Origin: Pirellulales bacterium
GTDB lineage: Bacteria > Planctomycetota > Planctomycetia > Pirellulales > Lacipirellulaceae
Assembly: GCA_963841515.1 (NCBI GenBank)
Contig: CAWJDB010000010.1
Coordinates: 431,237 to 495,236, forward strand
Reading direction: 5' to 3'
DNA length: 64,000 nt
A program made the translations under genes and the position numbers. The notes under the pieces were generated by a model. That model made no database searches and was not told where the DNA came from. It saw nothing but the letters and a program-made list of their open reading frames with translations. Positions within the stretch are counted from its first letter, which is position 1. Every line of letters starts with the position of its first letter. Of the stretch, positions 1,394 through 34,348 are shown one piece after another.

Positions 1394-3172
1394 CCGGGGG
1401 CTAAATTGGACGCCAGCGGCGCCGCCTCGCGCAGCGGCAGCTCGAAGCACGCGGCTTCCTCGGCGTTGCGCACCACGAGGAGATTCCCCGCGAGGGCCGG
1501 GTTGTTCCAAGTAACGCCCTCGATCGCCTGCAGGTTGGCCAACTCGTGGTATTTCTTGGGAGACGCCTCGACGAGGATTAGCTCGCCCGATTCGCTCAGC
1601 ATCAGGATGACGTCGCCCACCAGGATGATCTGCCCGTGGCCGAACGTGGGACTGCGCCGCTTGTTCCATGTGGCGTGGCCGTCGCTCAGGTCCACGCATT
1701 GCAGGAACACGTCGTTCAACCCGTAGGCGAAGTCGTCGCGGATCACGACGTTGCCAAATTTCGTCTTCAGCACAGCCGGGTTTTTCCACACGGTCTCTGT
1801 CGTCCACTCGTCGCCGTCGCGCTTCACCTGGATCAGCTCGGCGCCGGCGCCGTAGCCCATCGACAGGAGCACGCGATCGTCGCCCACGGGCACGGGCTGC
1901 GCGGCGGCGGCGCTGGAATCGCTGCTGCTGGGCCATGAATGCCGCCACAGCTCCTGGCCGTCGTCGAGCCGATGGGCGGTGACGAAGCCTTCGTCGACCG
2001 ACAGAATTTGCCGCACGCCAGCCAACTCAGCCGCCAACGGCGAGGCGTAGCTGGAGGCGCAGGTCGCCCGCCGCCCAGGCCTGCTTGCCCGTACCCAGGT
2101 CGTAGGCGACGAGCGAGTTGCCCTCGGCGCCGCCGACGCTAATCACCACGCGCTGGTCGACCATCAGCGGCGAACCGGCCTTTCCCCACATCACCATGGG
2201 GGCGTCGTTCTCGGCCAGCGTGTCGTGACTCCACAGGAGCTTGCCAGTGCGGGCGTCGAGGCAGTTGACGATGCCGGTGGCGCCCTGAGCGATCACCCGG
2301 CCCTGAAAAACGGTTGGCGTCGCGCGGGGACCCGCGCCGCCGAGAGCGCCGCCGCCGCTGGGATCCCAACGCACCGCGTCGGCATGCGTCCACAACGGCT
2401 TGCCGGTGCGCAGCTCGTAACACACCACCAGCTCCTGGTCGCCGCGTTGCTCCTGCGTTACGGCGTAGTCGCCCACGAGGGCAAAGCCCGACCACCCGGC
2501 GCCGATCTTGTGCTTCCACAACTCGCGTGGGGGATGCTCCCGCCAATCAGTTTCGAGCGCGACGCCTTTCACCTCGGCCCAATAGCCATTGCCGAGAAAT
2601 CGCGGATAATCTTGCGGCGTCTCGCGCCAGTCAAGGGCGCCCCCAGCCGTCGTCTCCGGTGAAGTCAGGGCCCGATCGGGATCAGCCCACCGCCACCGCA
2701 CGCTCTCGATCCCAACGTCGCCATTGAGCACGACCTCGAAGGGCATCAGCTGCAGGTAATAGGCGGCCACGAGACCGCAGGCCGCCGCGGCCAACGACCA
2801 TCGCAAGCGTCGCGACAGGCCGCTGCGGCGCACCAGCCAGAGGGAATCGCCGACCACTGCGAGAGCGACCGCGATGTTAATCACCGTGTTGGTCACGCCA
2901 GGATCGACGTCGCTCCGCCATAAGACGGCGCAGCCCATCGCCAGCGCCAACGGCCAGGCGATGGGAAACCAGGCTCGTCGCGGTAGCGCTTGATCGGGCG
3001 CCACGGATGGCTCGGCGACTGACGAATTGACGGAAGAACTCATAGCCACATCATTCCTGGTCCGACCACGTAGCGCGCGTGCCATGTCCTCGTCCGCGTG
3101 GACATGCCTTGCCCCGTCGTCAACATGTCCACGTCGGCGGACCTCCGAGGACATGCCACCCACGCTCGGCAA
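1387..3172 (-). pseudogene. PQQ-like beta-propeller repeat protein with N-terminal TM helices; frame broken near 2030
   Basis: ORFs 2027..3172 and 1387..2037 overlap by 11 nt in different frames and both carry WxxxG/GxV beta-propeller repeats. Together they would make one ~590-aa protein. Confidence 0.5.
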
Positions 3173-3262
3173 CCAATCCTAAGTCTAGCTTTACCTGCCG
3201 GCAACGGCTGAACGATCGCAGCGTGGTTGCCAGCGGCGTCACGTCAAACTACAACCGACAGA

Positions 3263-4027
3263 ATGAGCACCCCTTCACAGCCACTCGCCGATTGCCGCGC
3301 GGTGGTCACCGGCAGCACCAGCGGGATTGGCCGTGCGATCGTCGTCGAGCTGGCCCAAGCCGGCGCAAGCGTGGTCGTCCACGGCCGCAATCGAGAGCGG
3401 GCTGAGAGCGTCTGCGCGTCGCTCCAGAAGATGAAGCGCGAGGCGACGGCGATTGTTACCGACCTGGCCGATGCCAGCGGTTGGGAAGGATTTGTCGACG
3501 GCCTGTGGCGCGAGCGGCCGATCGACGTGTGGGTCAACAACGCCGGCGCCGACGTGCTGACCGGCGACGCGGCAAACTGGACTTTTGAGCGAAAACTCGA
3601 AGCCCTGTGGCGACTCGACGTGGCGGCGACGCTAGGTCTGTCCCGCGCGGTCGGCCGCCGGATGCGCCAGCGCGGGCGCGGCGTGATCATCAACATTGGC
3701 TGGGATCAAGCCGAACTCGGCATGGCGGGCGACAGCGGCGAGATGTTCGCCGCCGCCAAGGGCGCCGTCATGGCGTTTACGCGCAGCCTGGCCAAGTCGC
3801 TGGCCCCGCAAGTGCGCGTCAACTGCCTGGCCCCGGGGTGGATCCGCACCGCGTGGGGCGAGACGGCCTCCGACTATTGGCAACAGCGCGCCACGCGCGA
3901 GTCGCTGCTGGGCCGCTGGGGCGAGCCGGAGGACGTGGCGCGGGCAGCGTGCTTCCTCGCGTCGCCGGCGGCGGCGTTTATCACCGGTCAAATCCTCGAC
4001 GTCAACGGCGGCCGCGCCGGTCCCTGA
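3263..4027 (+). CDS. Short-chain dehydrogenase/reductase (SDR) family oxidoreductase
   Basis: TGSTSGIGRA Rossmann motif, NNAG motif and C-terminal ITGQILDVNGG. The expected YxxxK reads FAAAK. Confidence 0.7.
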   Translation: MSTPSQPLADCRAVVTGSTSGIGRAIVVELAQAGASVVVHGRNRERAESVCASLQKMKREATAIVTDLADASGWEGFVDGLWRERPIDVWVNNAGADVLTGDAANWTFERKLEALWRLDVAATLGLSRAVGRRMRQRGRGVIINIGWDQAELGMAGDSGEMFAAAKGAVMAFTRSLAKSLAPQVRVNCLAPGWIRTAWGETASDYWQQRATRESLLGRWGEPEDVARAACFLASPAAAFITGQILDVNGGRAGP

Positions 4028-4140
4028 ACAATCCCTCCGGCCCCCTCGCCCTGGCGGGGAGGGTTGGGGAGGGGGGTTGAAGTGGACGGCGATTCGCCAC
4101 TTCTACACCCCTCCCCTAGCCCCTCCCCATCGAGGGGAGG
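4028..4140. repeat. Two REP-like GC-rich palindromic units (CCCTCCCC..GGGGAGGG..GGGGAGGGGGG)
   Basis: 4030..4078 is ~85% identical to 28905..28958. The GGGGAGGGGGG core is shared with the REP copies that flank the RAYT gene. Confidence 0.6.
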
Positions 4141-4160
4141 GCAGCGGAGGATCGAACATC

Positions 4161-5594
4161 ATGCCACGCGAGCACATCCATTTCGTCACCGGCCGATTGG
4201 CGGAGCATGCGCTCAAGTCCATCGTGGCGCCGCTGGCGGCACAGGCGGGGTTCGACTACACGATCGACGTGCTGCCGATCACCGTGGCCGCACTGATGAC
4301 GCCGGAGTGGATCGCCCGCCACTGCACGTGCCGCCGCGGCGACCACGCGGATCATTCTGCCGGGCTACTGCGAGGGCGACCTGGCGCCGCTCGGCGGCGA
4401 CCACGTCCGCCCGGTCGAGCGCGGCCCGCGCGACTTGCGGCAGCTTGCCGGCCTATTTCCTCCGCGAGCCGCCGCCGCAGGATTACGGCGCCTACGACAT
4501 CGAGATCATCGCCGAGATCAACCACTGCCCCGGTTGCCGCTGGACGAGATCCTGCGCCAGGCCGACGCAGCTGGCGCGCGACGGCGCCGATGTCATCGAC
4601 GTCGGCTGCGATCCGGGCGACGCCATGGCCGGCGTCGGCGACGCCGTGACGGCGCTGCGCGACGCGGGCATCCGCGTGTCGATCGACAGCCTCAACCGCG
4701 CGAGATCGCGCCGGCCGTGGCCGCCGGCGCCGAGCTGGTGCTGAGCGTCAACAGCACGAACCGCGACGCGGCGCCCGATTGGGGCGTCGAAGTGGTCGCC
4801 ATGCCCGACGTGCCGGCCACGCTCGAGGGACTCGACGAGACGATCGACTATCTGGCCCGCGCCGGGCGTGCCGCTGCGGATCGATCCGATCCTCGAGCCG
4901 ATCGGCTTCGGCTTCGCCGCCAGCTTGGGCCGCTACCTCGAAGTCCGCCGCCGCTATCCCGACGCCGAAATGATGATGGGCATCGGCAACCTCACCGAGC
5001 TGACCGACGTCGACTCGGCCGGCGTCAACGTGCTGCTGCTTGGCTTCTGCCAGGAGCTGTGGCATCCGCAGCGTGCTGACGACGCAGGTGATCAATTGGG
5101 CCCGCACCAGCGTCCGGGAGTGCGACGTCGCCCGCCGGCTGATGCATCATGCTGATCACGCACCGCGTGCTGCCCAAGCACCTCGAGCCGCGGCTGGTGA
5201 TGCTGCGCGACGCCGAAGTCGCAGGAAACGCCGATCGAAGCGCTCGCCGAGCTGGCCTGCGCAGATTCGAGATCCGAATTACCGCATCTTCGCCGCAGAC
5301 GGCGAGGTGCACCTGGTCGGCGCCGGCCTGCACCTGCACGACCGCGATCCGTTCGTCGTCATGGAACAGCTTCGCCGCGCCGGTCCCGACGACGGCCTGC
5401 CGAAAAATCTCGACCCGGGGCACGCCTTCTACCTCGGCTACGAAATGTGCAAGGCCGCCACCGCGCTCACCTTGGGCAAGACCTACCGCCAGGACGAAGC
5501 GCTCGACTGGGGTTTTGCGACGCAACCCGAGTCGCGCCACTACCTGAAGCGCTCGCGCGCCGTCGACCGGCGCGGGGAGCGACGATACGATTAA
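4161..5594 (+). pseudogene. Dihydropteroate-synthase-like pterin-binding protein (methanopterin-pathway DHPS-like); frame broken at least 4 times
   Basis: DHPS-like segments ([32 protein letters not shown]) are spread over six overlapping ORFs in all three + frames, starting at MPREHIHFVTG. Confidence 0.5.
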
Positions 5595-5597
5595 CGG

Positions 5598-7013
5598 ATG
5601 ACCGTCCCCCCTGCCCTGCCCTTGGTCGAACCACTGCCGGCGAGCCTCTCCGCCGTCGAAGCCTTCCAGCGACTTGCCAATCGGCCGCACGTCGTGTTCT
5701 TCGACAGCGCGGCGCATGACCCACGGGTAGGCCGGTACTCGTTCGTGGCGGCCGATCCGTTTCAGTGGATTGAGCGTGCGGCGACGGACGGCGACGCCTT
5801 GGAGGCTGTCGAGCAGCTGTGTCGGCGCTATGTCGGCGACCCGCGCCAAGATTTGCCGCCGTTCCAGGGCGGCGTCGCCGGGTTGTTTGGCTACGAGCTG
5901 GGGCGCACGCTCGAACCAGTTCCGGCGGCCCGCTACGACGACCTCCCGACGCCCGCGGTCGCGGTGGGCGCCTACGACGTCGTGGCGGCGTTCGACCACG
6001 CCGTCGGGCGAGGTTGGCTCATTTCGCAAGGCTTTCCCGAGACCGATCCAGACGCCCGCCGCAATCGGGCCACGGCCCGCCTTGCCGAGTTTCGATCGCT
6101 GCTTGCCGCGCCGCCAGGCGGATGTTGCATGGCGCCTCGCGAAATGCACGCTCCGCGACGACTTCGCGAATCTGGCGCCCCAACATGAAGTTGGCCCGCC
6201 CGGTGTTACCAGCAATCTTTCCGCCGACGACTACCGCCAGATGGTGCGCCGAGGCGTCGAGTATGTCCACGCCGGCGACGTGTTCCAGGTCAATCTGGCT
6301 CAGCGACTGCTCGCCAAGGCCCAAACAAATTCGGTAGACCTCTACCTGCACCTGCGCAATCGCAATCCGGCCCCTTATGCCGGCTATCTCGACCTCGGTC
6401 CTACGCAGGTCTGCAGCGCCTCGCCCGAGTGCTTCCTGACCGTCCGCGACCGTCACGTCGAGACGCGTCCGATCAAGGGCACCCGCGGCCGGTCGCTGCG
6501 CCCCGAGGCCGACCTGTTCGCCGGCGACGACTTGACGCTCAGCGAAAAGGACCGTGCCGAAAATGTGATGATCGTCGACCTGCTGCGCAACGACCTGTCG
6601 CGCGTGTGCCGGCCAGAGAGCGTGCACGTCTCGCAGCTATGCCGGCTGGAATCGTATGCCTTCGTGCAGCACCTGGTGTCGGTGGTGCGCGGCGAGTTGA
6701 AACCCGAGTGCACGCCGCTCGACCTCTTGCGGGCCAGCTTCCCGGCGGTTCGGTCACCGGGGCGCCCAAGGTGCGGGCCATGGAGATCATCGCCGAGCTG
6801 GAGCCCACCGCCCGCGGGGCCTACTGCGGCTCGCTCGCCTACATCGGCTTTGACGGCCCGATGGACGCGAGTATTCTCATCAGAACGATCACCGCCGGCC
6901 GCGGCTGGTGGCAACTCCCAGTCGGCGGCGGCATCGTCGCCCAGAGCGACCCCGACGAGGAGTACCGCGAAACCTGGCACAAGGCGCGGGGATTGCTGAA
7001 GGCCATCAGTTGA
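5598..7013 (+). pseudogene. pabB: Aminodeoxychorismate/anthranilate synthase component I, frameshifted twice
   Basis: The N-terminal Anth_synt_I_N-like part is in 5598..6188. The chorismate-binding motifs (GDVFQVNLAQR, IKGTRGR, DRAENVMIVDLLRNDL) are in 5770..6999. The C-terminal GGSVTGAPK...GGGIVAQSDP is in 6429..7013. Confidence 0.65.
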
Positions 7014-7017
7014 AAAC

Positions 7018-7133
7018 CCAATGAACAAATCCCAATGACCAAGCACCAATGACCAAGCACCAATGACCAATGACGGAGGAAAGACTGCTCTCGGCCAATT
7101 GGTCATTGGTGCTTGGTCATTGGTCATTACTCC
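7018..7133. repeat. Long imperfect inverted repeat (hairpin) made of CCAATGACCAAGCA units, lower GC, between pabB and pabA
   Basis: ccaatgaccaagcaccaatgaccaagcaccaatgaccaatgac ... ggtcattggtgcttggtcattggtcatt. Confidence 0.6.
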
Positions 7134-7136
7134 GCC

Positions 7137-7803
7137 ATGATTCTTCTCATCGACAACTACGACAGCTTTGTCCATAACCTCGCCCGGTATTTCCAGCGGC
7201 TGGGGCAGGAGACGGTCGTGCGTGCGCAACGACGCGGCGACGGCCGCTGACGTGCGCCGGCTGGCGCCGCAGGCGATCGTGCTGTCCCCCGGGCCGTGTA
7301 CGCCCGCCGAAGCGGGCTGCTCCGTGGATGTCGTGCGACAGCTTGCTGACCGAGTCCCCATCTTAGGCGTGTGCCTTGGCCATCAGGCAATCGCGGCCGC
7401 GTTGGGCGCCCGGATTGTCCGCGCCGCGGAACCGCGACACGGCCGCACCTCGCTGGTCGAACACTCGCCGTCCGGACTGTTCGCCGGCCTGCCGACGCCG
7501 CTGGTCGCGTGCCGATATCATTCGCTAGTCGTCGACGAGGCCACGCTCCCTCGGGAGTTGCGTCCCACGGCCCACGCCGACGACGGCGAGCTGATGGCGT
7601 TCGAGCACGAAACCCTCCCGGTGTTTGGCGTGCAATTTCATCCCGAGGCGACGCTCACCGAGCATGGCTACGCGCTGCTGGCGAATTTCTTGCGCCTGGC
7701 CGGCGTAGCCATTAGCGGCGATCCAGCGGCGCTCGCGGCGTCGGAAAATCGCACTCCGCCCGCATTTGAGTTCGCCGAGCCTGCGCTGCCAGTCACATTT
7801 TGA
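7137..7803 (+). pseudogene. pabA: Glutamine amidotransferase (PabA/TrpG, component II); frameshift near 7230
   Basis: N-terminus MILLIDNYDSFVHNL starts at ATG 7137 in frame 0. The rest (GVCLGHQ, FGVQFHPE) is ORF 7168..7803 in frame +1. Confidence 0.65.
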
Positions 7804-8441
7804 GAGAATTCGCCGCCATGTCTGCAGCCGACGCGCGGCCGCCTGAGCTAGGCGCCGACGGCCGCATATTGGAAGGCATTGTCACGACGCTCAACGTCGA
7901 CGGCAGCGCCAACATTGCTCCCATGGGGCCGATCGTCGACGAGCGCCTGGACTGGCTCTGGCTGCGCCCGTTTCGGACTTCGAGGACATTTGAAAATTTG
8001 ACTCGTCACGCTCAGGGCGTGTTTCATGTCACGGACGACGTCATGCTGCTGGCCCAAGCAGCGATTGGACAGCCGGATCCGCTGCCCGCGTCTATGTCCG
8101 CCAAGAAAATCGAGGGCGTGATCCTTGTCAACGCGTGCCGATGGTTTGAGTTTGAAGTCGAATGGATCGACCCTCACGAAGAGCGTTTCGCCATCTTGGC
8201 GCGCGTCGTCGACCGCGGCGTGCGGCGTGATTTCTTTGGCTTCAACCGCGCCAAACATGCCGTCGTCGAAGCAGCCATTCTGGCTACCCGCGTACATCTG
8301 CTGGACCGGCACGAAATCATGGCCGAATTCGATCGGCTTGCCGTCCCCGTCGCCAAAACGGGCGCCGCCGCCGAACGCGAAGCGTTCGAATTCCTGCGCC
8401 GCTATGTTACATCCCAGATAGAGCAATCTCGCCCAGGCTAA
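7800..8441 (+). CDS. DUF447-like protein; from memory this family co-occurs with methanopterin-linked C1 genes
   Basis: 213-aa intact ORF. The family assignment comes from memory of sequence character only. Confidence 0.35.
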   Translation: MREFAAMSAADARPPELGADGRILEGIVTTLNVDGSANIAPMGPIVDERLDWLWLRPFRTSRTFENLTRHAQGVFHVTDDVMLLAQAAIGQPDPLPASMSAKKIEGVILVNACRWFEFEVEWIDPHEERFAILARVVDRGVRRDFFGFNRAKHAVVEAAILATRVHLLDRHEIMAEFDRLAVPVAKTGAAAEREAFEFLRRYVTSQIEQSRPG

Positions 8442-8550
8442 TCCGCGCCGCGTCGTGTTAGCCGGCATCGTCTCGATGCCGCGTCCCGACGAGCGATCGC
8501 GCCGCCGCGACCGCGCCGGCCAACTCATCCCCCAAGTTGCAATTCGCCAC

Positions 8551-9510
8551 ATGCCCGTTTTTGTCTCCGCTCCCAGCCGCCTCCACTTTGGCTTGCTCCG
8601 CTTCGAGCAGCCCACAGGCCCCAGCTTCGGCGGCCTGGGCATGATGATCGACCGGCCGCGCCTTGAAGTCGCGGTGTCGGCGGCCGACCAGTGGAGCGTC
8701 GACGGCTTCGCCGCCGCTCGCGCCCGCGAAGCCGCCGAGCGGGCCCTCGCGTCGACCCCGGCCGCCCACAAGCCCTCGGCGCTGGCCCTGCGAGTGACCG
8801 CCGACGCCTCGCTGCACCACGGGCTGGGCGGAGGAACTCAACTGGCGCTGGCCATCGCGGCCGGCGTCCGCGCGCTCGTGGGCCTGCCTCCCGGCGACGC
8901 CGCCACGCTGGCCGCCGCCGTCGGCCGCGGCCAGCGCAGCGCTGTGGGAAGTTACGGCTTCGTCCACGGCGGGCTCATTTGGGAGCTCGGCCGTCAACCC
9001 AACGAGCCGTTGTCCGCGCTGGGCGCCCGCATCGACGACGCCGCCCGATTGGCGGTGCGTACTGGTGGACTCGCCGGACGACTGCGGTCTGAGCGGTCAA
9101 CTCGAACGCGACGCCTTTCAAGCGCTTCGCCCGATGCCGGCCGCGACGACCGAGCGACTGCGGGCGCTGGCGGAAGACGAAATCCTCCCCGCCGCCCGCC
9201 GCGCCGACCTCGATGCCTTCGGCGAAGGCGTGTACCGGTATGGCCGCCTCTCGGGCGAGCAGTTCGCCGCCGTGCAGGGCGGCGCCTTCGCGTCGCCTCA
9301 GATCGGCCAGCGCGTGGCGGCGATTCGCGCCCTGGGCGTGCGCGGCACGGGACAATCGTCGTGGGGGCCGACAGTGTTTGCCCTCGTCGCGAGCCAGGCA
9401 GAGGCCGACGCGCTGATGCAGGAACTGAAAGGGCACCCCGCGACCGCCGGCTGCATCATCGACGCAGCCCGGCCCGACAACCACGGCGCGCCTTTCAGCA
9501 TCAGGCCCGC
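8551..9510 (+). pseudogene. beta-ribofuranosylaminobenzene 5'-phosphate synthase-like (MptG, GHMP-kinase fold); frameshift near 9055
   Basis: MPVFVSAPSRLHFGLL and GLGGGTQLALAIAAG (GHMP-like) are in frame 8455. The continuation DSPDDCGLSGQLERDAF...GTGQSSWGPTVFAL is in frame 9065. Confidence 0.5.
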
Positions 9511-9571
9511 CCCGAGGGTAATCGCTTTTCAACCGGGCCGCCAAACCGCCGTCCCCGAAAAGCCAAAGAAT

Positions 9572-9605
9572 GTTGCTGAAAATGGCCGCGCACTTTGCTA
9601 CGGTG
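9572..9605. repeat. 32-bp repeat GTTGCTGAAAATGGCCGCRCACTYTGCTA (partner at 16529..16560)
   Basis: Near-identical direct repeat that brackets the mobile-element-rich segment. Confidence 0.55.
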
Positions 9606-9668
9606 GGGAAAGGGGGGGAAAGGGGGGGGGAGGGGGGAAAGGGGACATTCTACTTTATTGCCCCCTTC
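9600..9668. repeat. REP-like element copy a (..GGGGGGGAGGGGGGAAAGGGGACATTCTAC)
   Basis: G-rich run ending in GGGGACATTCTAC. It is inverted relative to copies b and c and sits at the 3' side of the RAYT gene. Confidence 0.6.
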
Positions 9669-9859
9669 CGCGGCCGACCCCGCGGCCGCAGCGTGAATTC
9701 CAGCCCGAGCTTCCCTGCCGTCCGCCGCTGCCACCTCGGCGCACCAAAAGGACTGCCCCGCACCACGCTCGTCCGCAGCGCCGCCAGTTCCGCCTCGGTC
9801 TGCGGCTGGTTCACCCACTGGAGCCAGTCGGCGCCGCGGGGAACCGGCCCCGGGTCCAG

Positions 9860-10340
9860 TCGCGGCGCCTCGACGCCGGCCGGCAGCACGACCAATCGAC
9901 GACCACGGCCAACGCTCCGCCTTCCGCACGCCCAGCGACTTGGCCCGCACGGGATTGCGCTCCACGTAGCGCAACACCGCCAGCAAATGTTCGTCGCGCT
10001 GAATGGGAAACGCCTTGAACCGACCCTGCCACACATGGCCGCTCGTGCCGTAATGCCGATGGTAGCGCCGCACGTGGCTGGTCAAGAGCCACTGCATCCA
10101 GCGGCTCAAGTCGCCGCCCTCGCGCGGCCACAGCACCAGGTGAAAATGATTGGGCATCAGCGAGTAGCCGACGATGCGCATCGAGACGTTCTTGACCCGT
10201 TCGCCGGCCTCGACCATCAGCTTCAGAAAGGCGGCGTAGTCGTCGTCTTTGTGAAACACCTCCTGCCGACCGTTGCCGCGGTTCAGGACGTGATAACAGT
10301 AATTGCCGGCCGAAGCCCGAGCCGTGCGAGGCATGCCCAC
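9860..10340 (-). CDS. REP-associated tyrosine transposase (RAYT; IS200/IS605 TnpA-like HuH Y1 transposase)
   Basis: YHVLNRGNGRQEVF...VGYSLMPNHFHLVLWP...HVWQGRFKAFPIQRDEHLLAVLRYVERNPVRA. The ORF reads on to 9501, but the domain ends at ~160 aa. Confidence 0.75.
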
Positions 10341-10369
10341 AAGCTAGTCCAGCCGCCAGGTCGTGTCAA

Positions 10370-10398
10370 GAAAAGTAGAATGTCCCCCTTTTCCTCCC
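10370..10398. repeat. REP-like element copy b (TAGAATGTCCCCCTTTTCCTCCCCC)
   Basis: Reverse complement of copy a. It lies just upstream of the RAYT start. Confidence 0.55.
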
Positions 10399-10618
10399 CC
10401 GACGCTGCGGACCTACGAGATGGTCTGCCTTTATCTGCAAGGCTGGGCCGATCAGCAGGAGCTGTTGGCGCAGCCTCGAAAAACTGAAGCCTCACGTCGC
10501 CTAGGCCCGCTCTTGCTCCCGAGCCGGCTCGCCTGATGCTGCGCCCTTCTGCCGCGCGGGGGCCGCTTCCTGCGCGCCGCCGCCGCCACCTCCTCAAGGC
10601 AGTCGTTTGAACGCGCGC

Positions 10619-10962
10619 TCAACGACCCTCACAATGCCTTGGGGCAACTCCAGAGCCGAACAGCCGTGAGAATGTCCCCTTTCCCCCCTTCGTGGCGAGG
10701 CAGACGATCCCTGCCAAACCCATCAACACGAGGCCGATCGAGGCTGGTTCCGGCACCGATTCTTGGTAGGCATGGGCATAGTCAAACCCGGATGCCGAAA
10801 TGATGGACCATCCCGTGATCGGTTCGCCGGTCAGGGCGTCGGTGACACTCGTGATCCCGCCCCACTTCAGGGTGTTCCCAAAAGCGCCGATGAACGATGT
10901 CTCGAATAGATTCCCATCTGGACCTAACGCAGAATTATAACTGTTGCTGGTTGTCCTACCCT
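10619..10962 (-). pseudogene. C-terminal fragment of a PEP-CTERM protein truncated by the IS66-family insertion; REP copy c (10662..10692) lies in its 3' tail
   Basis: ...QESVPEPASIGLVLMGLAGIVCLATKGG. The ORF continues straight into the IS terminal repeat, and the upstream remainder resumes at 12489. Confidence 0.45.
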
Positions 10963-12488
10963 GTAACCGTTCACGCCCTGGGGAGCAGTGACGGGGCTTT
11001 TTGGCGTGCGAAGTGGGCGTGCACGGCGGCGGCGACGAATTCGAAGGCGTTGCGTTTCTGTTGACGGCAGGTTTCGATGACGGTGAGCATCGTTTCGGCA
11101 AAGCGGCTGCCGCCGGCGCTTTGCGTGCCAAACGAGAGTTTCCGCCAGATCACGGCGTGGCGCAAGGCGCGCTCGCTGGCGTTGTTGGTCGGTTCGACGC
11201 CCTCCACGCGGACGAACGTCCACAGCCAATCGCGATGGTCATAGAGTTCGCGACACATCCCCGCGATCGATCGGTTACCGCTGCTGGCCCCGCGCAGCAG
11301 CACGCGTTCGACCTCGCGGCGGACCGGCGCCATGCGGCGGATGAAGGCCGTCCGCGTGATCGTGCCGTCGCGATAATTGGCCCAATGCTCGAACAGCTTG
11401 CCGGCGGCGCGGCGGAGGTCGTACCCGAGCCGTTTGGCCTGACCGTCGCCGCCGTCGATCAGGGCTTGAAAATCGCGTTTCAAATGCGCCCAACACCATT
11501 GCAAACGGCCGGTGTGCCAGTACATTTTGGCTCGATCGCAGGTCACCACGCCGCCGAACTCCGCCGTGAGCAGATCGACCAGCGCCGTCGCCTCGCGCAT
11601 AGCGCGGACCGCAAACACGGTGAAGGTCCGGGCCACGAACGTCCACAGCCACGCCTTCCTGTTTTGTTCCTTGGTCGCCGTTTCGTCGATGCTCAGTCGG
11701 TCCTGCGTCGGCAGTTGAGCGGCCAACTCGTCGTATGCCGGCCGCAGGGCCGCCGTCGCCTGATGTTGCATCTTCACCGTCAGCGCCGGGCAGCACGGCT
11801 GACCCGCGAGCGCCGAGAAACTCGGCCGTCCGCCGCTTGCTTTGTCGATAGTAGGCCATCAACAAGGCGACCAGCGCCGTCAGCCGCGGACCCGACTGGC
11901 CCTGCGGCACGCCGGCCGGCAACTCCGCGCACGTCGTTTCGCCGCAGCACGGGCACGCCAGCCGATGTCGCCGGTACTCGGTGACGTGCGGCTTGATCTC
12001 GGGCAGTTCCCACACCTGGTGACGCAGCGGGTCGGGATCGCGGCCGGTCAGCTTGCCGCCGCAGCGCCGGCACTCCGCCGGCTTGAGTTCTTGCACCTCG
12101 TCGCAGTCTTCGCTCGGAACGAGCGGCCGCTCGTGTTTCGCGTGGCCCGGTTGACCGCCGCGGCGCTTCGTCGATTTCCGCTTCCGCGGCGGCGGGGCCG
12201 GCCGGGCGTGCGGATGCTGCGTGCTCGGTGGCAGCGAGGAGTTTTGCGGCGTCTTGCCCTTCACTTGTCGTCGCAGGTCGTCCAACTCCGCTCGCAGGTC
12301 GTTCAGCTCCGCCCGCAGCCCGGCGATCTCCGCCAGCAAGACACGGATGATCTCCTGCCCTCCGGCGACTGGCGAGCGATGACGTTATCAGAAACGTTGC
12401 ACCACATGCCCCATGGTGTCGCCGAAAAAGCCAAGGCAAGTAAAGATCAATTTCCCTTCCAAAAGCTCCCCAGGGTGTGAACGGTTAC
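10963..12488 (-). mobile_element. IS66-family insertion sequence (single-ORF type)
   Basis: 24-bp terminal inverted repeats GTAACCGTTCACGCCCTGGGGAGC / GCTCCCCAGGGTGTGAACGGTTAC starting with GTAA. An IS66 transposase lies inside. Confidence 0.7.
10971..12339 (-). pseudogene. IS66-family transposase, split into two frames near 11780
   Basis: The N-terminal zinc-finger/leucine-zipper part is in 11275..12339. The C-terminal DDE part (WAHLKRDF...NNASERALRH) is in 10971..11777. Confidence 0.7.
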
Positions 12489-12721
12489 CATCATGAAGTC
12501 GATGGTAATTAATTCACCCTCGGCCACAAAGAGTGTCACTGGAATCATTCCTGGAGCGGTTTCATTCACATCAACAGTGACGACGGAGCTTTTAGCACCG
12601 CACAAAGAAGGCGCCGTAGGTTGGATCCGGCAAGGGATCCAATCCAGTTACTCTGGCAGCTGTAAGCCTTAAAGTAACCGCGGAAGAGGCCAGGCGATTG
12701 GCGGTGGAAAAAGGTGGCGTC

Positions 12722-13715
12722 TGCTCAGTAGAAAACGTGCCTGTGCTAGCTAAACAACGGTTTTTGGCGGTTCGTATTGAGATGGATGAAGACAAGCAAG
12801 AGTCCGAAGCGGGTGTTGGTCGAGGCGCTCAAGGTCGCCGAGGCGGCGCTGCCGGCGTATTCGCACCGATTCAGCCCGAAGAAGTTTACGCTGCACCAAC
12901 TGTTCGCCTGCTTGGTGCTGAAGGACTTCTACAACCTGACCTATCGCGGCACGGTCGGCCTGCTGGCGGACGGCGACTCGCTGTCCGGGGCGATCGGCCT
13001 CAAGGAGGTCCCTCACTGGACCACGCTGCAGAAGGCGGCCGACCGGCTGCTCTTGGCCCGTTCGTTTCGGCGGCTGCTCTCGGCGACGGTCGAGCGGAGC
13101 CAGCAGGCGAAGATCGTGGGCCGGCGACGCGTTCGCCTGGCGGCGATGGACACCAGCGGCTTCGAGGCGCAGCACACCAGTCGGTACTACGCCGCACCGG
13201 CGAAAAATGACGGGAAACGACGGGCGGAAACGCCGGGTGACGTATCGACGCTATCCGAAGCTGGGCTTGGCCTGCGACGCGGCGAGCCACTTCATCTTGG
13301 CGGCCCGCACAAGCCAGGGACCGCAACCCGACTTCGGCGACTTCGCCCCGTTGTATGCGGCGCAGGCGCGCATGGGATTGACAACGATCGCGGCGGACGC
13401 CGGCTTCGACAGCGAAGCGAACCACGAGTTGGCTCGCGACGAGTTGGGGATCCAATCGCTGATTCCGGCGACTCATGGCCGACCCGCTCGCGGCGAGCCG
13501 ACAGGTCGGTATCGGAAACAGATGAAGCGACATCTTGGTCAAAGCCGTTACGGCCAGCGCTGGCAGGTCGAAACCGTCAACTCGATGATCAAACGCCTGA
13601 CCGGAGAGGTCGTCAACGCCCGCACCTACTGGCGCCGCTGTCGACTCCTCCTGCTGAAAACCCTCACGCACAACATCAGCATCCTTAGACAACAGCTAGG
13701 TTTTCTACTGAGCAT
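12722..13715 (+). mobile_element. IS4/IS5-superfamily (DDE_Tnp_1) insertion sequence
   Basis: 15-bp terminal IRs TGCTCAGTAGAAAAC / GTTTTCTACTGAGCA, flanked by an 8-bp direct repeat GTGGCGTC (12714..12721 and 13716..13723). Confidence 0.65.
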
Positions 13716-13767
13716 GTGGCGTCTCCTTGTTGGTGATACCAATGTTCCCACTCAGATCCAGAAATGA
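12777..13767 (+). pseudogene. DDE transposase of the IS5-like element; frameshift near 13205
   Basis: ORFs 12777..13688 and 13207..13767 (FDSEANHE, YGQRWQVETVNSMIKR). Confidence 0.65.
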
Positions 13768-13915
13768 TTCAAGTTTGACTATCCTACCAGGATAGGATCG
13801 AAGGTATGAACGAATCTGCTAGTATCCTGCCACCTTGCTTGCCCGTACGCATATATCAATTCCGCGTTAGCGATCGCCAAATTGGAAGCAGAACTCGCGC
13901 AATTTGCCATCGACT

Positions 13916-14374
13916 TCAACTCTTAAAGCGCCCGGTTACGGCACTCGCCTCGATTGTCACGGACCCCGCCGCCATACTTTCGCCAGACATGACCGCGTCG
14001 GCAACCGTCCCTTTAATTGACGCCGGGATTCTCGGGTAATCGGCTTCATCGTCCGGATCTACGGACGTAAAGCCGAACGTTTTTCGCAAATCACTGCCAT
14101 TGAGAGACCCACCTCTATAGGTCGGGGTTTCACGTCCATGATAAGTACTGACGATGCCCGCCACGTTATAATTGACCGTATTGACGGCGACGTGCCCAGG
14201 TATCTCGGCCGAACTAGTTGCTGAAAAGCTCACGAAGAAACCGCAAACAACGGCGCCGAAAACAACGCTCTTCACCCTCGTGAGATTGACGAGGCCCCAG
14301 CAAAGTTTTTGCAGTGGAAGCCGGACCGGGAACTGGAGAGCCCGAGCGGAGAAATCAGACCAGCCCATCGACAT
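13916..14374 (-). CDS. Hypothetical small protein in a ~50% GC segment (13770..14850)
   Basis: 152-aa ORF with a hydrophobic N-terminal stretch. Confidence 0.2.
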   Translation of the reverse strand: MSMGWSDFSARALQFPVRLPLQKLCWGLVNLTRVKSVVFGAVVCGFFVSFSATSSAEIPGHVAVNTVNYNVAGIVSTYHGRETPTYRGGSLNGSDLRKTFGFTSVDPDDEADYPRIPASIKGTVADAVMSGESMAAGSVTIEASAVTGRFKS

Positions 14375-14847
14375 GGGAGCACCCTTTCGCTGGAGTTGGA
14401 TTCAAGCGGATCGTAACCCCGTGGAGGGTTTGCACGCAGTTACAAAGTGACTCGGTCCCCAAAAAAAGCTGCGTCTTGAGCCAGGGCCGAGGGCACTGAG
14501 TGTAACAGGTCTGATAAGCAACAAGTCTCGAATTATCGCCAAGACGCGAAGTTCGCCAAGAATAAGAATTAACTCACTCCAGTTCGGCACGGCGTTTGAA
14601 ATTGCTCATTCGACATTTCACCTAAGAACTGAGCCTCAATCCTCGGCGGAATCGCCAACCGCACTCGAGAATGTGGAACACGGGGACAGCCACACATCGG
14701 CGGGGGGAACACGGGGAGAACCCAGCCAACTGGCGACGAGCTACGAGGGTGCTACCGTCGCTGGTGCCCAGGCCGGTTCGGCCGTCGGCATTCAAGCCAA
14801 AGGAGAATACTTGCCCGTATAATATAAGGGTAATATAAGGGGACGCA

Positions 14848-16363
14848 GCTCGAATGGCACTCGGATAGCTCTAACGTCGGTGCATCAAACGTTTTCGTGC
14901 GAGGCGTCGGGGTTCGCGGAGGTGTTTGTACTGTTTAGGCCTGCGTTTGACGAGCCGCGGCTCAATTCGGTCGGGTCGATCGGCGACGCGGTGGCTGCCG
15001 ATCATCCAGAGGAGAGCTGCGTAGAGCCGATCAGCATTGCGCGAGTCGGCGATCACCAGGCCCAAGAACGCGTTGATTGACTGCATCGCTCCTTTGAAGC
15101 TGAGCTGATGCGGCGCAACGCCTGCGGACAGGGCCGCTTCCAGCATCAAGCCGCGGATCAAGTTGTAGGCTAACAGGTGCGCATAGAACTCTTTGCGCAC
15201 GGTACTCGGCTTCTTGCAGCGTAAGCGCTCCATTTGCATGTGCGTCTTGAGCTTCGCAGGTGCAGTTCGGCGTCCCAACGACGGCGATAGAGGTTGGCCA
15301 GGTCTTCCGCCGGATAGGCGATCGGATCCACCAGCGTGGTCGCCAGCAGGATGACCCGCGGGCGAAAACCTGGCTGGTCGACCCGATAACGCAGATGACG
15401 AATCCCAGCGAGCGACGGCAACCGCTCGTACGTCGGCCGATCCATCCAGGCAGGGCCTGCGTCGGCTTCTGATAGACACGTCAACTGGTCGGCGTCGCCC
15501 GAGCTTCAGTCCGGTGCGAAAGTCGATCTTGCGTGAGCTGGCCTGGGCGCACCAGGTCGACGCGGGCGTCTCCGCAGCAACGCAAAGTCCCAGAAGGACG
15601 CATAGTATCGATCGGCCAGCGCCACTTCGCCCGGCCGGCAAACTATCGAGCAAGCGGCGAAACAAGTTGTTTTCGCCGGTCTGCTTCCCTTCGTAGGGGC
15701 CGATCGCCACCTCGACGACCGCTCCTACGGCCAGCGAAAAGACGACCACGATCCCGCGATCGGAAAGCCGATGGCTCTCCGCTTGAATGGACTGTTGCGG
15801 ATATTCGCGCTGGTTGTCCGGCGTGTCGGCCATCGATGATGGTCGAGCCGTCGACGACCTTGACCGCTCGGCCGAGCCACTGCCAAGCCCGGTCGGCACT
15901 ACAACGCCAGTTCCTGGCCGGTGGAACGCACCAATCGACAAGAGTTGCTCGGGCAGCCGCTCGCGCGCTTCGCAGTAACTGTTGGTGTCGGGATGGCACG
16001 GCGGGAGGTTCTGCGAGCCGCCAGAAGTTCAGCTTGGCAACAGCTTCACGGCACGAATGGTCTGCACCACGACCTGGCTGAGGAACACCCACAGCGTGAC
16101 CGCCGGAGAGTAGACCCGTTCTCGAAACTCGTGTTGCAACCGCTGGCAGGCCGCAATTTACACTTTTCCGAAGACAAACGCTCTGCTGAAAAACAACCCC
16201 TGACAGCTATGCGCCAGTCGTGAACCGCGGCGCGCAATTGCGCTTCCGACGCATCCAAACATCTCACAACCTCCTTGTTATGGCTTGGCATCGGTCCACG
16301 CCAACCATCTCAAGGAGGTTGCTTTCAATCCATATCAATTCAACTCACAAACACTTACGACTA
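14848..16363 (-). mobile_element. IS4-family insertion sequence
   Basis: 18-bp terminal IRs CGAATGGCACTCGGATAG (14849..14866) and CTATCCGAGTGCCATTCG (16345..16362). Flanking ~10-bp direct repeat GGACGCAGCT(C). Confidence 0.6.
14871..16090 (-). pseudogene. IS4-family DDE transposase broken into at least three frames
   Basis: Pieces in 14871..15941 (..RIEPRLVKRRPKQYKHLREPR), 15170..15484 (YRRRWDAELHLRS) and 15643..16092 (VVDGSTIIDG). Confidence 0.6.
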
Positions 16364-16528
16364 TCCGAGTGCCATTCGGGACGCAGCTCATTACAACGTC
16401 TGTCTCTCCATCATCGGAAATCTGCGTCATCGGCGGACACGTTCCTCTTGATCCGCGTCCTCGGCGAGCCTCCGCGGTCAATTCCTTCTCCGAGTCTGCG
16501 CGGCTCCGCCCAAAACGTTCTCAAAAAA

Positions 16529-16560
16529 AGTTGCTGAAAATGGCCGCACACTCTGCTAAG
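16529..16560. repeat. Second copy of the 32-bp repeat GTTGCTGAAAATGGCCGCACACTCTGCTA
   Basis: 30 of 32 nt match 9572..9605. Confidence 0.55.
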
Positions 16561-16859
16561 CTGCTCATGGTGTACGTCTGTGTACACGTGCAGTTCTTTG
16601 ATAATTGAAAAAGCAGCTCTTAGCTGTTAGCCCTTAGCTGTCAGCCCGAGGGGAGAAATGCGCGCTCACCCCGGCGTGGGATCGCCGACGCGGCACGCTA
16701 GTTTTGGCGTTCCAATACAACGTGCGTGCGGCGCAAACGCCGCGAGTATTGGACCGGCCGCAGGAAAGAAATGCCGCGGTTCGTCGGCTCACAGCGCGCT
16801 GCGGGCGATCAAAACCCACCGGGGTTTTGGCGTAAAAAACTGGGACCCCCGCGGGCTCC

Positions 16860-16928
16860 AATTCCAAAACCCTACCGTAGCCGAGTCTCTCCGAGACTCG
16901 AATCTCCGCGGCTCAAAGAGCCGCGACC
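16860..16928 (-). terminator. Tandem GC-rich hairpins downstream of dapA (minus strand)
   Basis: CGCGGCTCTTTGAGCCGCG and CGAGTCTCGGAGAGACTCG hairpins followed by GGTTTTGG. Confidence 0.35.
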
Positions 16929-16936
16929 ACGTGGAA

Positions 16937-17890
16937 TTACTTGGCCGCCAATTGCGACCCGCCCGTCCGCTTCGCTGGCGCCGGGCCACGCCCTTCGCCG
17001 AGCAGGCCGTAAGCCACGAGCGTCTTGCGGAGCGCCGCCTTCTGCGGCGCATCCAGCGGCGTCATCGGCAGCCGCATCTCGCCGGTGTCGCGGCCGAGCA
17101 TTTTCATCGCCGCCTTGATCGGGATCGGGTTGGTGGACAGACCCGAGCATGTCGCGGCAGAGCGGGAACAGCTTGCGGTGCCACTGCCGCGCCTCGGCCA
17201 GGTTGCCGCGTCGAAGGCCTCGATCAGCGCGATCATGTCCCGCGGCACGATGTTGCCGACGACCGAGATGACGCCCCGGGCGCCGATCGCCATCAGCGGC
17301 AGCGTCAGGCTGTCGTCGCCGCTGAGCACGGTCAGGTTCGGTCGGCGCGATGATCTGCGAGGCCTGGTCCAGCGAGCCGGTGGCTTCCTTGACCATCGTG
17401 ATGTTCGGCAGTTCGGCCAGCCGGGCGATCGTCTCCGGCTCGATGTTCTTGCCGGTGCGGCCGGGGATGTTGTAGACGCAGATGCGGCAGATGCCGACTG
17501 CCTCGGCCAGGCGCTTGAAGTGCTGGTAGAAGCCCTCCTGCGTGGGCTTGTTGTAGTAGGGGGCGACGACCAGCGCCGCGTCGGCGCCGGCCTTCTCGGC
17601 CAACTTCGTCAGCCGCAGGGCCTCGGCCGTGCTGTTGGAGCCGGTGCCGGGCATGACCTTGATGCGCCCGCCGGCGATCTCGCACGACGAACGGCGATCA
17701 CGCGCTCGTGCTCTTCGTGGGTGAGCGTCGGCGACTCGCCGGTCGTGCCGACCGGGCAGAGGCAGGTCGTGCCGGCGGCGACCTGAAACTCGATCTGCTC
17801 GCGGAAGCTTCGTAGTCGACTTCGCCGTTCTTGAACGGCGTGACCATGCGCCACCGACAGGCCGGCAAATGCTTCGCCTTTGGTCGTCAT
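16937..17890 (-). pseudogene. dapA: 4-hydroxy-tetrahydrodipicolinate synthase, spread over three frames
   Basis: N-terminus [11 protein letters not shown]...[17 protein letters not shown] in 17609..18181. Middle [20 protein letters not shown]...NIPGRTG in 16872..18044. C-terminus [23 protein letters not shown] in 16937..17329. Confidence 0.7.
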
Positions 17891-18084
17891 GCGGGCAGGC
17901 TCCTGATGCTCGCGGGGGACGAGCCGAGTGCGCGGGACGACTGCAATTTGCGTGACGTGGCGGAAGATCGGCGTACGCACGCGACAATTGGCGCCACGGC
18001 GAGGATGTCGTCGCGCTGGCAATAGCCGGCCCGTGCGATGCCATCGGCGGACGTCAGGGGATGTCACCGATATGCCGTTACGTG

Positions 18085-18870
<786 letters not shown>

Positions 18871-33028: not shown

Positions 33029-33147
33029 GACGACAATCGCCTTTGCTCGATCCCATGTCCGGAACGCGCGACGCTAACCATGTCACTGAAGCGTGCGCAC
33101 CGCTGGGCCCGGCAACCCTCGACCTTGCTTGAAGCTGCTTGAAAAAA

Positions 33148-33218
33148 GACGCTGACAGGAGTCGAACCTGTTTCAAGCTGCTTTGTAGGCAGCCGCCTCG
33201 CCGTCAGGCTCCAGCGTC
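33148..33218 (-). tRNA. tRNA with anticodon ACA (Cys-type, unusual A34)
   Basis: Perfect acceptor GACGCTG/CAGCGTC, anticodon arm GCTGC-CTACAAA-GCAGC, T arm ACAGG-TTCGACT-CCTGT. Confidence 0.55.
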
Positions 33219-33226
33219 AATAAAAT

Positions 33227-33298
33227 GCCCTCGCCAGGAATCGAACCTGGTCTTCAACCTTCGCACGGTTGCGTGCTGGTCCGGCACACTCCGAGGAC
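33227..33298 (-). tRNA. tRNA-Arg(GCG)
   Basis: Acceptor GTCCTCG/CGAGGGC, D stem GTGT/GCAC, anticodon arm CAACC-GTGCGAA-GGTTG, T loop TTCGATT. Confidence 0.6.
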
Positions 33299-33303
33299 TC
33301 AGT

Positions 33304-33375
33304 ACCCAGTAGAGGAATTGAACCCCTTCTTCGACGTTCGAAGCGTCGCGTGCGATTCCGGCACACTCACCGGGC
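33304..33375 (-). tRNA. tRNA-Arg(TCG)
   Basis: Anticodon arm CGACG-CTTCGAA-CGTCG, T loop TTCAATT, acceptor GCCCGGT/ACTGGGT. Confidence 0.6.
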
Positions 33376-33381
33376 GAAAGC

Positions 33382-33453
33382 GTCTCGACTAGGATTCGAA
33401 CCTAGACCCGCCGCTTAGGACGCGGCTGTGCGTTCCCGTAACGCTTCCGAGAC
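33382..33453 (-). tRNA. tRNA-Arg(CCT)
   Basis: Acceptor GTCTCGG/TCGAGAC, D stem GCGT/ACGC, anticodon arm GCCGC-GTCCTAA-GCGGC, T arm CTAGG-TTCGAAT-CCTAG. Confidence 0.65.
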
Positions 33454-33459
33454 TCAAGG

Positions 33460-33530
33460 GCCGGCGATAGGATTCGAACCTACATTGGGCTCATTACAAA
33501 TGAGCTGCTTCCCCATCAAGCCACGCCGGC
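33460..33530 (-). tRNA. tRNA-Thr(TGT)
   Basis: Perfect cloverleaf: acceptor GCCGGCG/CGCCGGC, D GCTT/AAGC, anticodon GCTCA-TTTGTAA-TGAGC, T GTAGG-TTCGAAT-CCTAT. Confidence 0.8.
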
Positions 33531-33539
33531 ATAGGAAGC

Positions 33540-33608
33540 AGGCCCGCCAGGATTTGAACCCGGTGCGTCAGTTTTGGAGGCTGACTGCTCTCCCAGGAGC
33601 ACGGACCT
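33540..33608 (-). tRNA. tRNA-like gene with 9-nt anticodon loop (CCTCCAAAA); identity unclear
   Basis: Acceptor AGGTCCG/CGGGCCT, D arm GCTC-CTGGGA-GAGC, stem GTCAG/CTGAC, T arm CCGGG-TTCAAAT-CCTGG. Confidence 0.4.
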
Positions 33609-33646
33609 GTAAAAGCACCCGGGCGGCCGACCCGGCGCCGATCAAA

Positions 33647-34237
33647 TCACTTCTGCAATTCCACGTTCCAGTACGCCTCGCTGATGAACTTCGACCAACT
33701 CTCAAGACGAACCTGCTGATCGGCGTACACCGGCCTCCACGTTGGACACGTCGGCGCCTTCTTGAGGTTCATGTCCGCCTGCTTCGGCGTCCGGTCGGCC
33801 TTACGCTTATTGCAGGCAATGCAGGCGAGAACGCAGTTCGTCCAGCTCGAAACGACTCCCCGAGCGCGAGGAACCACGTGGTCGATCGTGAGCTCTTCGC
33901 CGCCCGGGTTGACGCCGCAATACTGGTACTGAAAGCGATCTCGCTTATAAATGTTCCGCCGACCGAACGTCACCGCTCTGATCGGCAATCGATCGAAACC
34001 CGTGCGCGTGATGACTTCCGGCACGCGCAACCGGAAGTTAACGCCGCTCATGAACGGAGCTCCGTCCCGCGGTCGCAGCCGCGACCAATCGTCCCACGAG
34101 AACGTCTGGTAATCGGCCGCGTCGACGACGCGCAGCATCTTTCCACAACAGCACGAGCGCACGCGCTGTGGTCGCGACGTGCACGGGCTGCCAGTTCTTG
34201 TTCAGAACGAGCACAGGTTGTTGTAGTGAAGTCATAG
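33647..34237 (-). pseudogene. HNH endonuclease embedded in the tRNA array; frameshift near 34140
   Basis: N-terminus MTSLQQPVLVLNKNWQPVHVATTARALVLL in 34038..34334. HNH core YQYCGV...LTIDHVVPRARGG..CVLACIACNKRKADR in 33647..34162. Confidence 0.65.
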
Positions 34238-34249
34238 CTACTCCCATGC

Positions 34250-34337
34250 GGAATGGGCAGGATTCGAACCTGCAAGGCTGTTGAAGGCTCGGCCGGCTTC
34301 CAAGTGGGGTTTCGTCGCCAAGTCGATTTGCCATTCC
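34250..34337 (-). tRNA. Class II (long variable arm, 88 nt) tRNA; anticodon not resolved (Leu/Ser-type)
   Basis: Perfect acceptor GGAATGG/CCATTCC, T arm GCAGG-TTCGAAT-CCTGC. Confidence 0.5.
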
Positions 34338-34348
34338 GTGTTGTCAGC

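Follow-up and report, generated by a model that had tools for sequence, protein, structure and literature searches.

A 64,000-nucleotide stretch of DNA from a Pirellulales bacterium of the family Lacipirellulaceae (contig CAWJDB010000010.1; hereafter the window) contains 7.4 kb of lineage-specific DNA at positions 9521–16936, between two convergent genes, those of RFAP synthase and DapA. The block harbors a REP-associated tyrosine transposase (RAYT) gene with its REP sequences, a gene for a PEP-CTERM sorting-domain protein, three insertion sequences (IS) of different families, and two copies of a short direct repeat. On balance, we favor an explanation in which the gap between the two genes gained these insertions independently and in which the bracketing repeat represents two copies of a conserved promoter/leader-like module. 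The anatomy of the region, the point at which synteny is broken, and the conservation of the module in other genomes are established here.

Lineage-specific DNA between RFAP synthase and dapA

RFAP synthase and dapA are convergent neighbors in three relatives, namely L204, a JGI contig, and Lacipirellula limnantheis (L206), with intergenic distances of −4 bp, 19 bp, and 112 bp, respectively. In these three relatives the same cofactor cluster terminates in RFAP synthase and dapA lies directly next to it. Mapping of L204 and L206 proteins on the window by tblastn placed the RFAP synthase stop codon (TAA) at 9518–9520 and the end of dapA at ~16937. The two anchors of the block are as follows:

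8554–9520, plus strand: RFAP synthase, left anchor; one internal frame change, stop codon TAA at 9518–9520, last residue mapping to 9517
16937–17893, minus strand: dapA, right anchor; two frame changes, Pfam DHDPS pieces in three open reading frames (ORFs), tblastn frames −1, −3, and −1

The L204 and L206 queries recover RFAP synthase as two high-scoring segment pairs in frames 1 and 2; the called product (P0001) is out of frame, with similarity gone, from halfway. Because RFAP synthase and dapA are directly adjacent in relatives, 9521–16936 is lineage-specific DNA, and it includes both copies of the repeat together with 373 bp past copy 2. An earlier sequence-only reading of this DNA had supposed that a larger insertion separated the cofactor cluster from dapA and pdxJ and had suggested looking in relatives for a direct RFAP synthase–dapA junction. 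The junctions of L204, the JGI contig, and L206 bear out that mobile DNA has parted the H4MPT-cofactor cluster from dapA and pdxJ. The relatives compared are distant, sharing about 50–65% amino-acid identity. BLAST searches of plasmids with the unit and with the whole 7.4 kb gave no match.

A conserved module present in two copies

The repeat has a 29-nucleotide (nt) core, at 9572–9600 and 16530–16558, in which the copies match at 27 of 29 positions. Ungapped extension lengthens it to 42 nt with 86% identity (36/42; 9564–9605 versus 16522–16563). Within the 64-kb window the pattern GTTGCTGAAAATGGCCGCRCACTYTGCTA is found at these two places and no others, even when up to three mismatches are allowed, and none of 100 dinucleotide-preserving shuffles matched it. 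The bracketing direct repeat that the sequence-only reading had noticed thus holds up, although its coordinates were a few bases off and its length of 32 bp is approximate. The two copies, and the sequences that follow the second, are these:

9564–9605, plus strand: direct-repeat copy 1, promoter-like part only; core at 9572–9600, homology ending at a G-rich REP cluster
16522–16563, plus strand: direct-repeat copy 2, complete promoter-like module; an A-tract, then GTTGCTGAAAATGGCCGC, then TGCTAAGCT, which fits TGnTAnnnT
16564–16616, plus strand: leader; a hairpin at 16571–16592, then the boxA-like box TCTTTGATAATTGAAAAA at 16595–16612
16617–16936, plus strand: noncoding tail of ~320 nt, reaching from the leader to the dapA stop codon; short blocks shared with L017 (introduced below), for example GTTTTG..AAYTGGGACCCC

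The box TCTTTGATAATTGAAAAA is unique in the window, and the tail at 16617–16936 is missing from this junction in relatives.

A scan for the exact 18-mer GTTGCTGAAAATGGCCGC across species-representative genomes (one genome per species, a collection that excludes the source genome) returned 83 loci. Only two of these, both in planctomycetes, extend beyond the 18-mer: L017, a Planctomycetota metagenome-assembled genome (MAG), and L046, a Lacipirellulaceae MAG, whose cores match the window copies at 26 of 29 and 24 of 29 positions, respectively. L017 contains the core with its upstream A-tract, a hairpin downstream, and the box TCTTTGATGATTGAGAAG at the offset where the window has TCTTTGATAATTGAAAAA, such that the window leader and L017 have the box TCTTTGATRATTGARAAG in common at the same offset. 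Across 95 nt, blastn aligned 16522–16611 to L017 with 72.6% identity (E = 1.6e-8). When copy 2 and its L017 homologue were combined into an nhmmer profile, the profile matched 9558–9604 with E = 7e-7 and nothing else in the window. The 18-mer of L046 stands in the same A-tract context, and A-tracts lie upstream in all four copies. The L017 module is located between methylase-like and sulfatase genes, ~530 nt upstream of the latter; the L046 module is located between BON-domain and CHAT-domain genes and faces the 3' end of the convergent CHAT gene. Because the 27/29 match between the window copies barely exceeds the 26/29 match of L017, their similarity argues for constraint on a functional element rather than a fresh duplication. 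The motif is akin in kind to a promoter or leader element present at unrelated loci, which the sequence-only reading had named as the finding that would undo its own view; in number it amounts to two extra loci, one per genome, rather than dozens.

The motif is missing from the RFAP synthase–dapA junctions of L204 and L206, a weak test given how distant these relatives are, and none was found near PEP-CTERM or RAYT homologues in relatives. The other loci among the 83 were set aside as chance or orthologous coding matches, including a Nitrospiraceae locus and a Janthinobacterium gene. In Nitrospiraceae L002, L013, L037, L063, L068, and L101, the 18-mer is followed by a conserved ...CAGCTTCGTTCTCAGTCGCGACC.TCGCTGCGACGTACCC..., apparently at one orthologous locus. 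A scan of viral sequences gave one match to the 18-mer, by chance and inside apparent coding sequence. For metagenomes, the matches listed contained nothing for planctomycetes and were dominated by an unrelated AT-rich repeat. This high-copy repeat (...AGTTCATAAATAACCGTTTCTGCGCATGCGCAGTACAAATGTTGCTGAAAATGGCCGCAAATGCGACTATATGCTCAACTTTTGAAGTCC...) contains the same 18-mer and is spread over many short contigs (loci L087–L202; Ga0126325–Ga0126334, Ga0136654), with two copies ~745–770 nt apart in L108 and L139.

Resemblance of the module to promoters and leaders

Phased A-tracts are found in all four copies of the module and a TGnTAnnnT box in three of them (TGCTAAGCT, TGCTACGGT, and TGCTAGCCT), with CTGAAA 17 nt upstream. 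Judged by its sequence, this layout is in keeping with an extended −10 promoter that has an UP-like element, and we infer that the module may act as a promoter and that the box in the leader may function as a boxA. Box GUUCUUUGAUAA resembles the boxA of E. coli (GCUCUUUAACAA) at 9 of 12 positions, which serves as a lead only.

The order of elements in the window, an A-tract/promoter-like part, a hairpin in the position of boxB, and the U-rich box GUUCUUUGAUAA, recalls that of the antitermination leaders of rrn operons and CRISPR arrays (PMC7665894). BoxA elements are known to precede rRNA genes and CRISPR arrays, with a consensus that differs between phyla (PMC7665894). Unlike in those leaders, no rRNA gene, CRISPR array, or other long noncoding transcript comes after the box here. 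The reuse of promoter sequences at unrelated genes has been documented (PMC3488235). As with putative mobile promoters (PMC3488235, PMC3575422), a similar upstream-type sequence stands at nonhomologous loci, both within one genome and across genera. The likeness has limits, however: of the complete copies, which are copy 2, L017, and L046, two lack a co-oriented gene downstream, and the promoter status of the module is predicted.

These observations suggest the following model. The gap between convergent RFAP synthase and dapA would be a site where insertions cost little, and in this Pirellulales-type planctomycete it has been filled with 7.4 kb comprising the RAYT gene with its REPs, a gene for a PEP-CTERM surface protein, and an IS4-family element, the last placed in the region upstream of the PEP-CTERM gene. 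IS5-family and IS66-family elements later split the PEP-CTERM gene. The bracketing repeat would be two copies of a regulatory module in which phased A-tracts are followed by the invariant GTTGCTGAAAATGGCCGC and then by a TGnTAnnnT box. The right copy is complete; the leader that it heads contains a hairpin and a boxA-like sequence, and ~320 nt of noncoding DNA come next. The left copy is a solo promoter-like part, cut near the predicted start site by the REP cluster. The two copies probably arose by duplication of the module or by recombination between copies, rather than by one insertion event.

Several points weigh against this model. A simple sigma-70 consensus scan called neither copy. In the window and in L046 the module has no co-oriented gene after it, in L017 the next gene is ~530 nt away, and no rRNA, CRISPR array, or Rfam family is located downstream of the module. 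Rfam returned nothing at the gathering threshold for the module regions of the window, L017, and L046, and nothing at E ≤ 10 for 16400–17000. The tail folds marginally better than shuffles (z = −2.1 in the window and −1.2 in L017), and past ~95 nt the similarity between the window and L017 is confined to short blocks. The perfect block of 18 nt exceeds what a promoter usually needs and could instead be a protein-binding or recombination site. Of the four copies known, two were located via the exact 18-mer, so that its invariance is partly built in. Finally, the order of events cannot be reconstructed because the relatives compared are distant.

Other types of promoter were considered and rejected. 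For a sigma-54 promoter (TGGCAC-N5-TTGC) the spacing is wrong, since TGGCCGCGCACTTTGC has GG-N11-GC rather than GG-N10-GC in the window copies and in L017; for a promoter of the extracytoplasmic function (ECF) type, a conserved CGT-type −10 is lacking. The literature on planctomycete promoter motifs yielded nothing usable.

Alternative explanations for the repeat

Campbell-type integration offers a different origin for the bracket. A 6.9-kb block with its own module would have recombined at an RFAP synthase–module+leader–dapA locus to generate attL/attR-like hybrids. This would account for the direct repeats found at, or close to, either end of the lineage-specific DNA, and a crossover within the module would yield what is seen, a left copy with the promoter part only and a right copy with promoter and leader; moreover, the L046 module is likewise free-standing and faces the 3' end of a convergent gene. 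The arrangement recalls genomic islands flanked by direct repeats of tRNA or tmRNA genes (attL/attR), in that imperfect repeats of part of a conserved noncoding gene bracket foreign DNA. We nevertheless consider this origin rather unlikely. Searches of the block with Pfam and NCBIfam revealed no integrase or recombinase, only the transposases of the IS elements, the RAYT, and the PEP-CTERM protein. With differences at 2 of 29 core positions, the copies are no closer to each other than to the copy of another genus. No relative has a single-copy "empty" site, the relatives (which are distant) being without the motif at their junctions. In genomic islands, furthermore, an integrase is present and the repeated part is the 3' end of a gene; here it is the 5' promoter side. 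A repeat of 29–42 bp is also short for RecA-mediated recombination.

Another explanation, which we regard as unlikely, takes the promoter, boxA-like leader, and ~320-nt tail on the right for a noncoding RNA (ncRNA) gene of Pirellulales that has escaped annotation; copy 1 would then be what is left of a further, disrupted copy of that gene. In its favor, the module and leader are shared between genomes, and in two of three cases no ORF of the same orientation lies next to them. The window and L017 also have short blocks and CAAAAC/GTTTTG hairpins at matching offsets, and the two tails share 210 identical alignment columns compared with a maximum of 188 in 30 shuffles. Tblastx finds no conserved peptide, and the leaders of the window and L017 have no small ORF in common. 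Against an RNA gene stand the absence of any Rfam match even at E ≤ 10, the weak folding z-scores, and the end of BLAST-level similarity after ~95 nt; with two sequences only, covariation cannot be assessed. A bolder variant strikes us as quite unlikely: the ~95-nt module and its tail would constitute an undescribed Pirellulales ncRNA gene or antitermination leader that doubles as a recombination or integration site for foreign DNA, a role analogous to that of tRNA and tmRNA genes.

Could the repeat, or the whole block, have arisen through a misjoin in an error-rich long-contig assembly? Frame changes are indeed pervasive in conserved genes (see below), but the copies differ at 6 of 42 positions and their flanks differ as well. 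The target duplications of the IS elements have been preserved, as has the colinearity of the PEP-CTERM gene across the insertions, which is not expected of a collapsed or chimeric assembly. An artefact is thus highly improbable.

The sequence-only reading had suggested that the repeat could be the scar or recognition sequence of a larger composite insertion, and a single composite transposon carrying the whole 7 kb, with the repeat as its target-site duplication or terminal repeat, is effectively refuted: direct repeats do bracket most of the mobile DNA, but the IS elements come from three different families and do not form its ends, two of them have short duplications of their own, the repeat (29–42 bp) is imperfect and is conserved in genomes without these IS elements, and the insert continues for 373 bp past copy 2. 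Neither copy abuts an IS end, whereas a target-site duplication would, and the 29–42-bp repeat contains 2–6 mismatches (2/29 in the core, 6/42 in the extension). The scar is further opposed by the lack of a recombinase inside the block and by the presence of the motif, in its own surroundings, at unrelated loci in two planctomycete genomes and not at the relatives' junction. 

Mobile elements and the PEP-CTERM gene

Between and around the two module copies, the block contains the following features:

9603–9656, plus strand: G-rich REP cluster (GGGGAAAGGGG repeats), which includes REP1 at 9628–9656
9650–10334, minus strand: RAYT (Y1/HUH), 227 amino acids after bridging of one frame change
10372–10400, minus strand: REP2, inverted relative to REP1 and just upstream of the RAYT start
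10401–10668, no strand assigned: 268-bp fragment between REP2 and REP3 with a short reading frame (...TYEMVCLYLQGWADQQELLA...)
10669–10689, minus strand: REP3, complementary to REP1 at 21 of 21 positions, on the 3' end of the PEP-CTERM gene
10691–14374, minus strand: PEP-CTERM sorting-domain protein gene, ~380 amino acids, low GC, split by the IS66 and IS5 elements
10963–12488, minus strand: IS66-family element of the single-transposase type (no tnpA/tnpB), 1526 bp with one transposase frame
12722–13714, plus strand: IS5-family element; inverted repeats matching at 20 of 23 positions, 8-bp target duplication
14851–16378, minus strand: IS4-family element, intergenic, upstream of the PEP-CTERM gene; perfect 18-nt inverted repeats

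RAYTs belong to the IS200/IS605 Y1 superfamily. The protein encoded in the window matches PF01797 (E = 1.5e-11) and aligns with NF047646 over positions 2–146 of 146, scoring 59.5 bits against a cutoff of 80 bits; its translation contains the sequences HFHLVL and RYVERNP, in keeping with the HUH motif and catalytic Tyr region of a Y1 transposase. When reconstructed, it is 70–79% identical over 100% of its length to many homologues of 224–227 amino acids. Only three REP cores (GGGGACATTCT) are present in the 64-kb window, at 9641, 10377, and 10669, and all of them adjoin the RAYT gene. As in other RAYT/REP systems, a single Y1/HUH gene is flanked by inverted REPs, and the assignment of this unit in the sequence-only reading was correct. 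Two differences are evident: the RAYT has a C-terminal extension of ~80 amino acids and scores under the NCBIfam cutoff, and the bracketing repeat is not a part of the RAYT/REP system. RAYT homologues in L213 (3304–4060), L215 (Pirellulimonas nuda; 4943–5700), and L216 (about 4950–5700) stand at unrelated loci with the same REP core, GGGGACATTCTAC, in inverted orientation on both sides. The fragment between REP2 and REP3 has no Pfam match and may be a gene remnant.

Across genera of Pirellulales, the RAYT family (70–79% amino-acid identity over full length) is better conserved than housekeeping neighbors (about 50–70%), and more than 7500 database proteins resemble the RAYT at E ≤ 1e-30. At 5001–9558 of L215 (CP036291), a RAYT homologue lies next to a convergent PEP-CTERM gene; a transposase gene of the IS110 family is 3 kb away. 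The pairing of RAYT and PEP-CTERM may be coincidence, as PEP-CTERM genes seem common in these genomes.

The sequence-only reading had described a low-GC segment with an orphan ORF. Low GC is confirmed, the pieces in question having a GC content of 0.52–0.57 compared with 0.64 across the window, but the ORF is no orphan: 13916–14374 encodes the N-terminal part of the PEP-CTERM protein. The minus-strand ORF beside REP3 carries the PEP-CTERM motif (PF07589). A chimeric query, composed of the "orphan" ORF and the minus-strand pieces flanking the IS66 element, finds PEP-CTERM proteins of 369–382 amino acids; P0121 covers 99% of this query, and one PEP-CTERM protein with 99% coverage is named Bythopirellula sp. 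Homologue P0120 is colinear with the window, its residues 1–187 corresponding to 14368–13794, 212–290 to 12720–12489, and 293–377 to 10969–10700. The breaks in this alignment coincide exactly with the IS5 and IS66 insertion points, which interrupt the gene at approximately codons 211 and 291, respectively. REP3 replaces the Arg-rich tail of the protein, such that the translation ends in ...VPEPASIGLVLMGLAGIVCLATKGGKG rather than the ...GLLGLACRRNRA of homologues.

All three IS families named in the sequence-only reading proved correct. The IS66 element has inverted repeats of 24 nt that begin with GTAA (10963–10986 versus 12465–12488) and match at 23 of 24 positions (96% complementary). Its transposase matches NF033517 (E = 3e-56; 191 bits, cutoff 180) over profile positions 127–386, with a second piece over positions 1–118, as well as PF03050, zf-IS66, and DUF6444. 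Canonical IS66 members, as described in ISfinder, have an 8-bp target duplication and accessory tnpA/tnpB ORFs. The element here is a single-ORF variant that lacks both; its flanks, CCTACCCT and CATCATGA, differ. The IS5 element is bounded by the 8-bp duplication GTGGCGTC at 12714–12721 and 13716–13723, with one extra T beside the right end. Its transposase matches PF01609 and, in pieces, NF033579 (profile positions 34–137 and 135–287), each piece falling below the cutoff because the ORF is split. The IS4 element is flanked by the 10-bp duplication GGACGCAGCT at 14841–14850 and 16379–16388, within the 9–12-bp range for the IS4 family. Its putative IS4-type transposase matches NF033592 only at the C-terminal ~100 positions (233–332), in two frames and below the cutoff, and PF01609 weakly. 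That the three elements inserted separately follows from their individual inverted repeats and from the target duplications of the IS5 and IS4 elements.

Frame changes and assembly quality

Frame changes were counted by tblastn of L204 and L206 proteins on the window. Seven of ten conserved neighboring genes change frame one to three times, about 12 changes in ~9.5 kb or ~1.3 per kb (window positions 1432–18804):

DUF6513/pterin-binding: three frame changes
Chorismate-binding: two frame changes
DapA: two frame changes
PdxJ: two frame changes
Glutamine amidotransferase: one frame change
PQQ-repeat gene: one frame change
RFAP synthase: one frame change

Only three of the ten genes are uninterrupted, and Pfam agrees that dapA and pdxJ are broken. 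The sites of change are not located at long homopolymers. Error-rich assembly of the long source contig, 657,511 bp in length, is the most likely cause. The sequence-only reading had noted that all three IS transposases are frameshifted. The frameshifts are real, but the weight given to them is not warranted: because the flanking housekeeping genes, essential ones among them, show as many or more, those in the transposases carry no information on IS decay.

A tRNA array elsewhere in the window

Approximately 29 tRNA genes, covering most amino acids, are arranged head-to-tail in 4 kb of the minus strand at 33147–37070 and may form a tRNA-array island; 23 of the genes are confirmed by Rfam. Its odd members are a tRNA-Cys with anticodon ACA and a gene at 34673–34747 with an unassignable anticodon. 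A separate tRNA-Arg(ACG) gene is found at 48409–48482. No motif-like sequence lies upstream of the array or of tRNA-Arg.

Discussion

Each component of the block is a member of a known family, and the ensemble is an ordinary accumulation of IS and REP elements in a permissive gap. As in other such accumulations between convergent genes, independent IS66, IS5, IS4, and RAYT/REP insertions share one gap, the flanking genes keep their operons and promoters intact, and elements nest in a dispensable PEP-CTERM gene. This gap differs in that it additionally holds two copies of a conserved module unrelated to the IS elements. What had looked like a junkyard of mobile DNA thus consists of ordinary, separately inserted elements, and its resolution is mainly a matter of tidying the annotation, as is the return of the "orphan" ORF to a known class of genes. 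For anyone mining this assembly, pseudogene calls based on frameshifts in the record are unsafe before polishing.

If anything here is new, it is the module, which planctomycete genera share as a free-standing unit. Little is known of promoter architecture and small RNAs in this phylum, and the module would provide a useful handle if it proves to be an RNA gene or a recombination hotspot.

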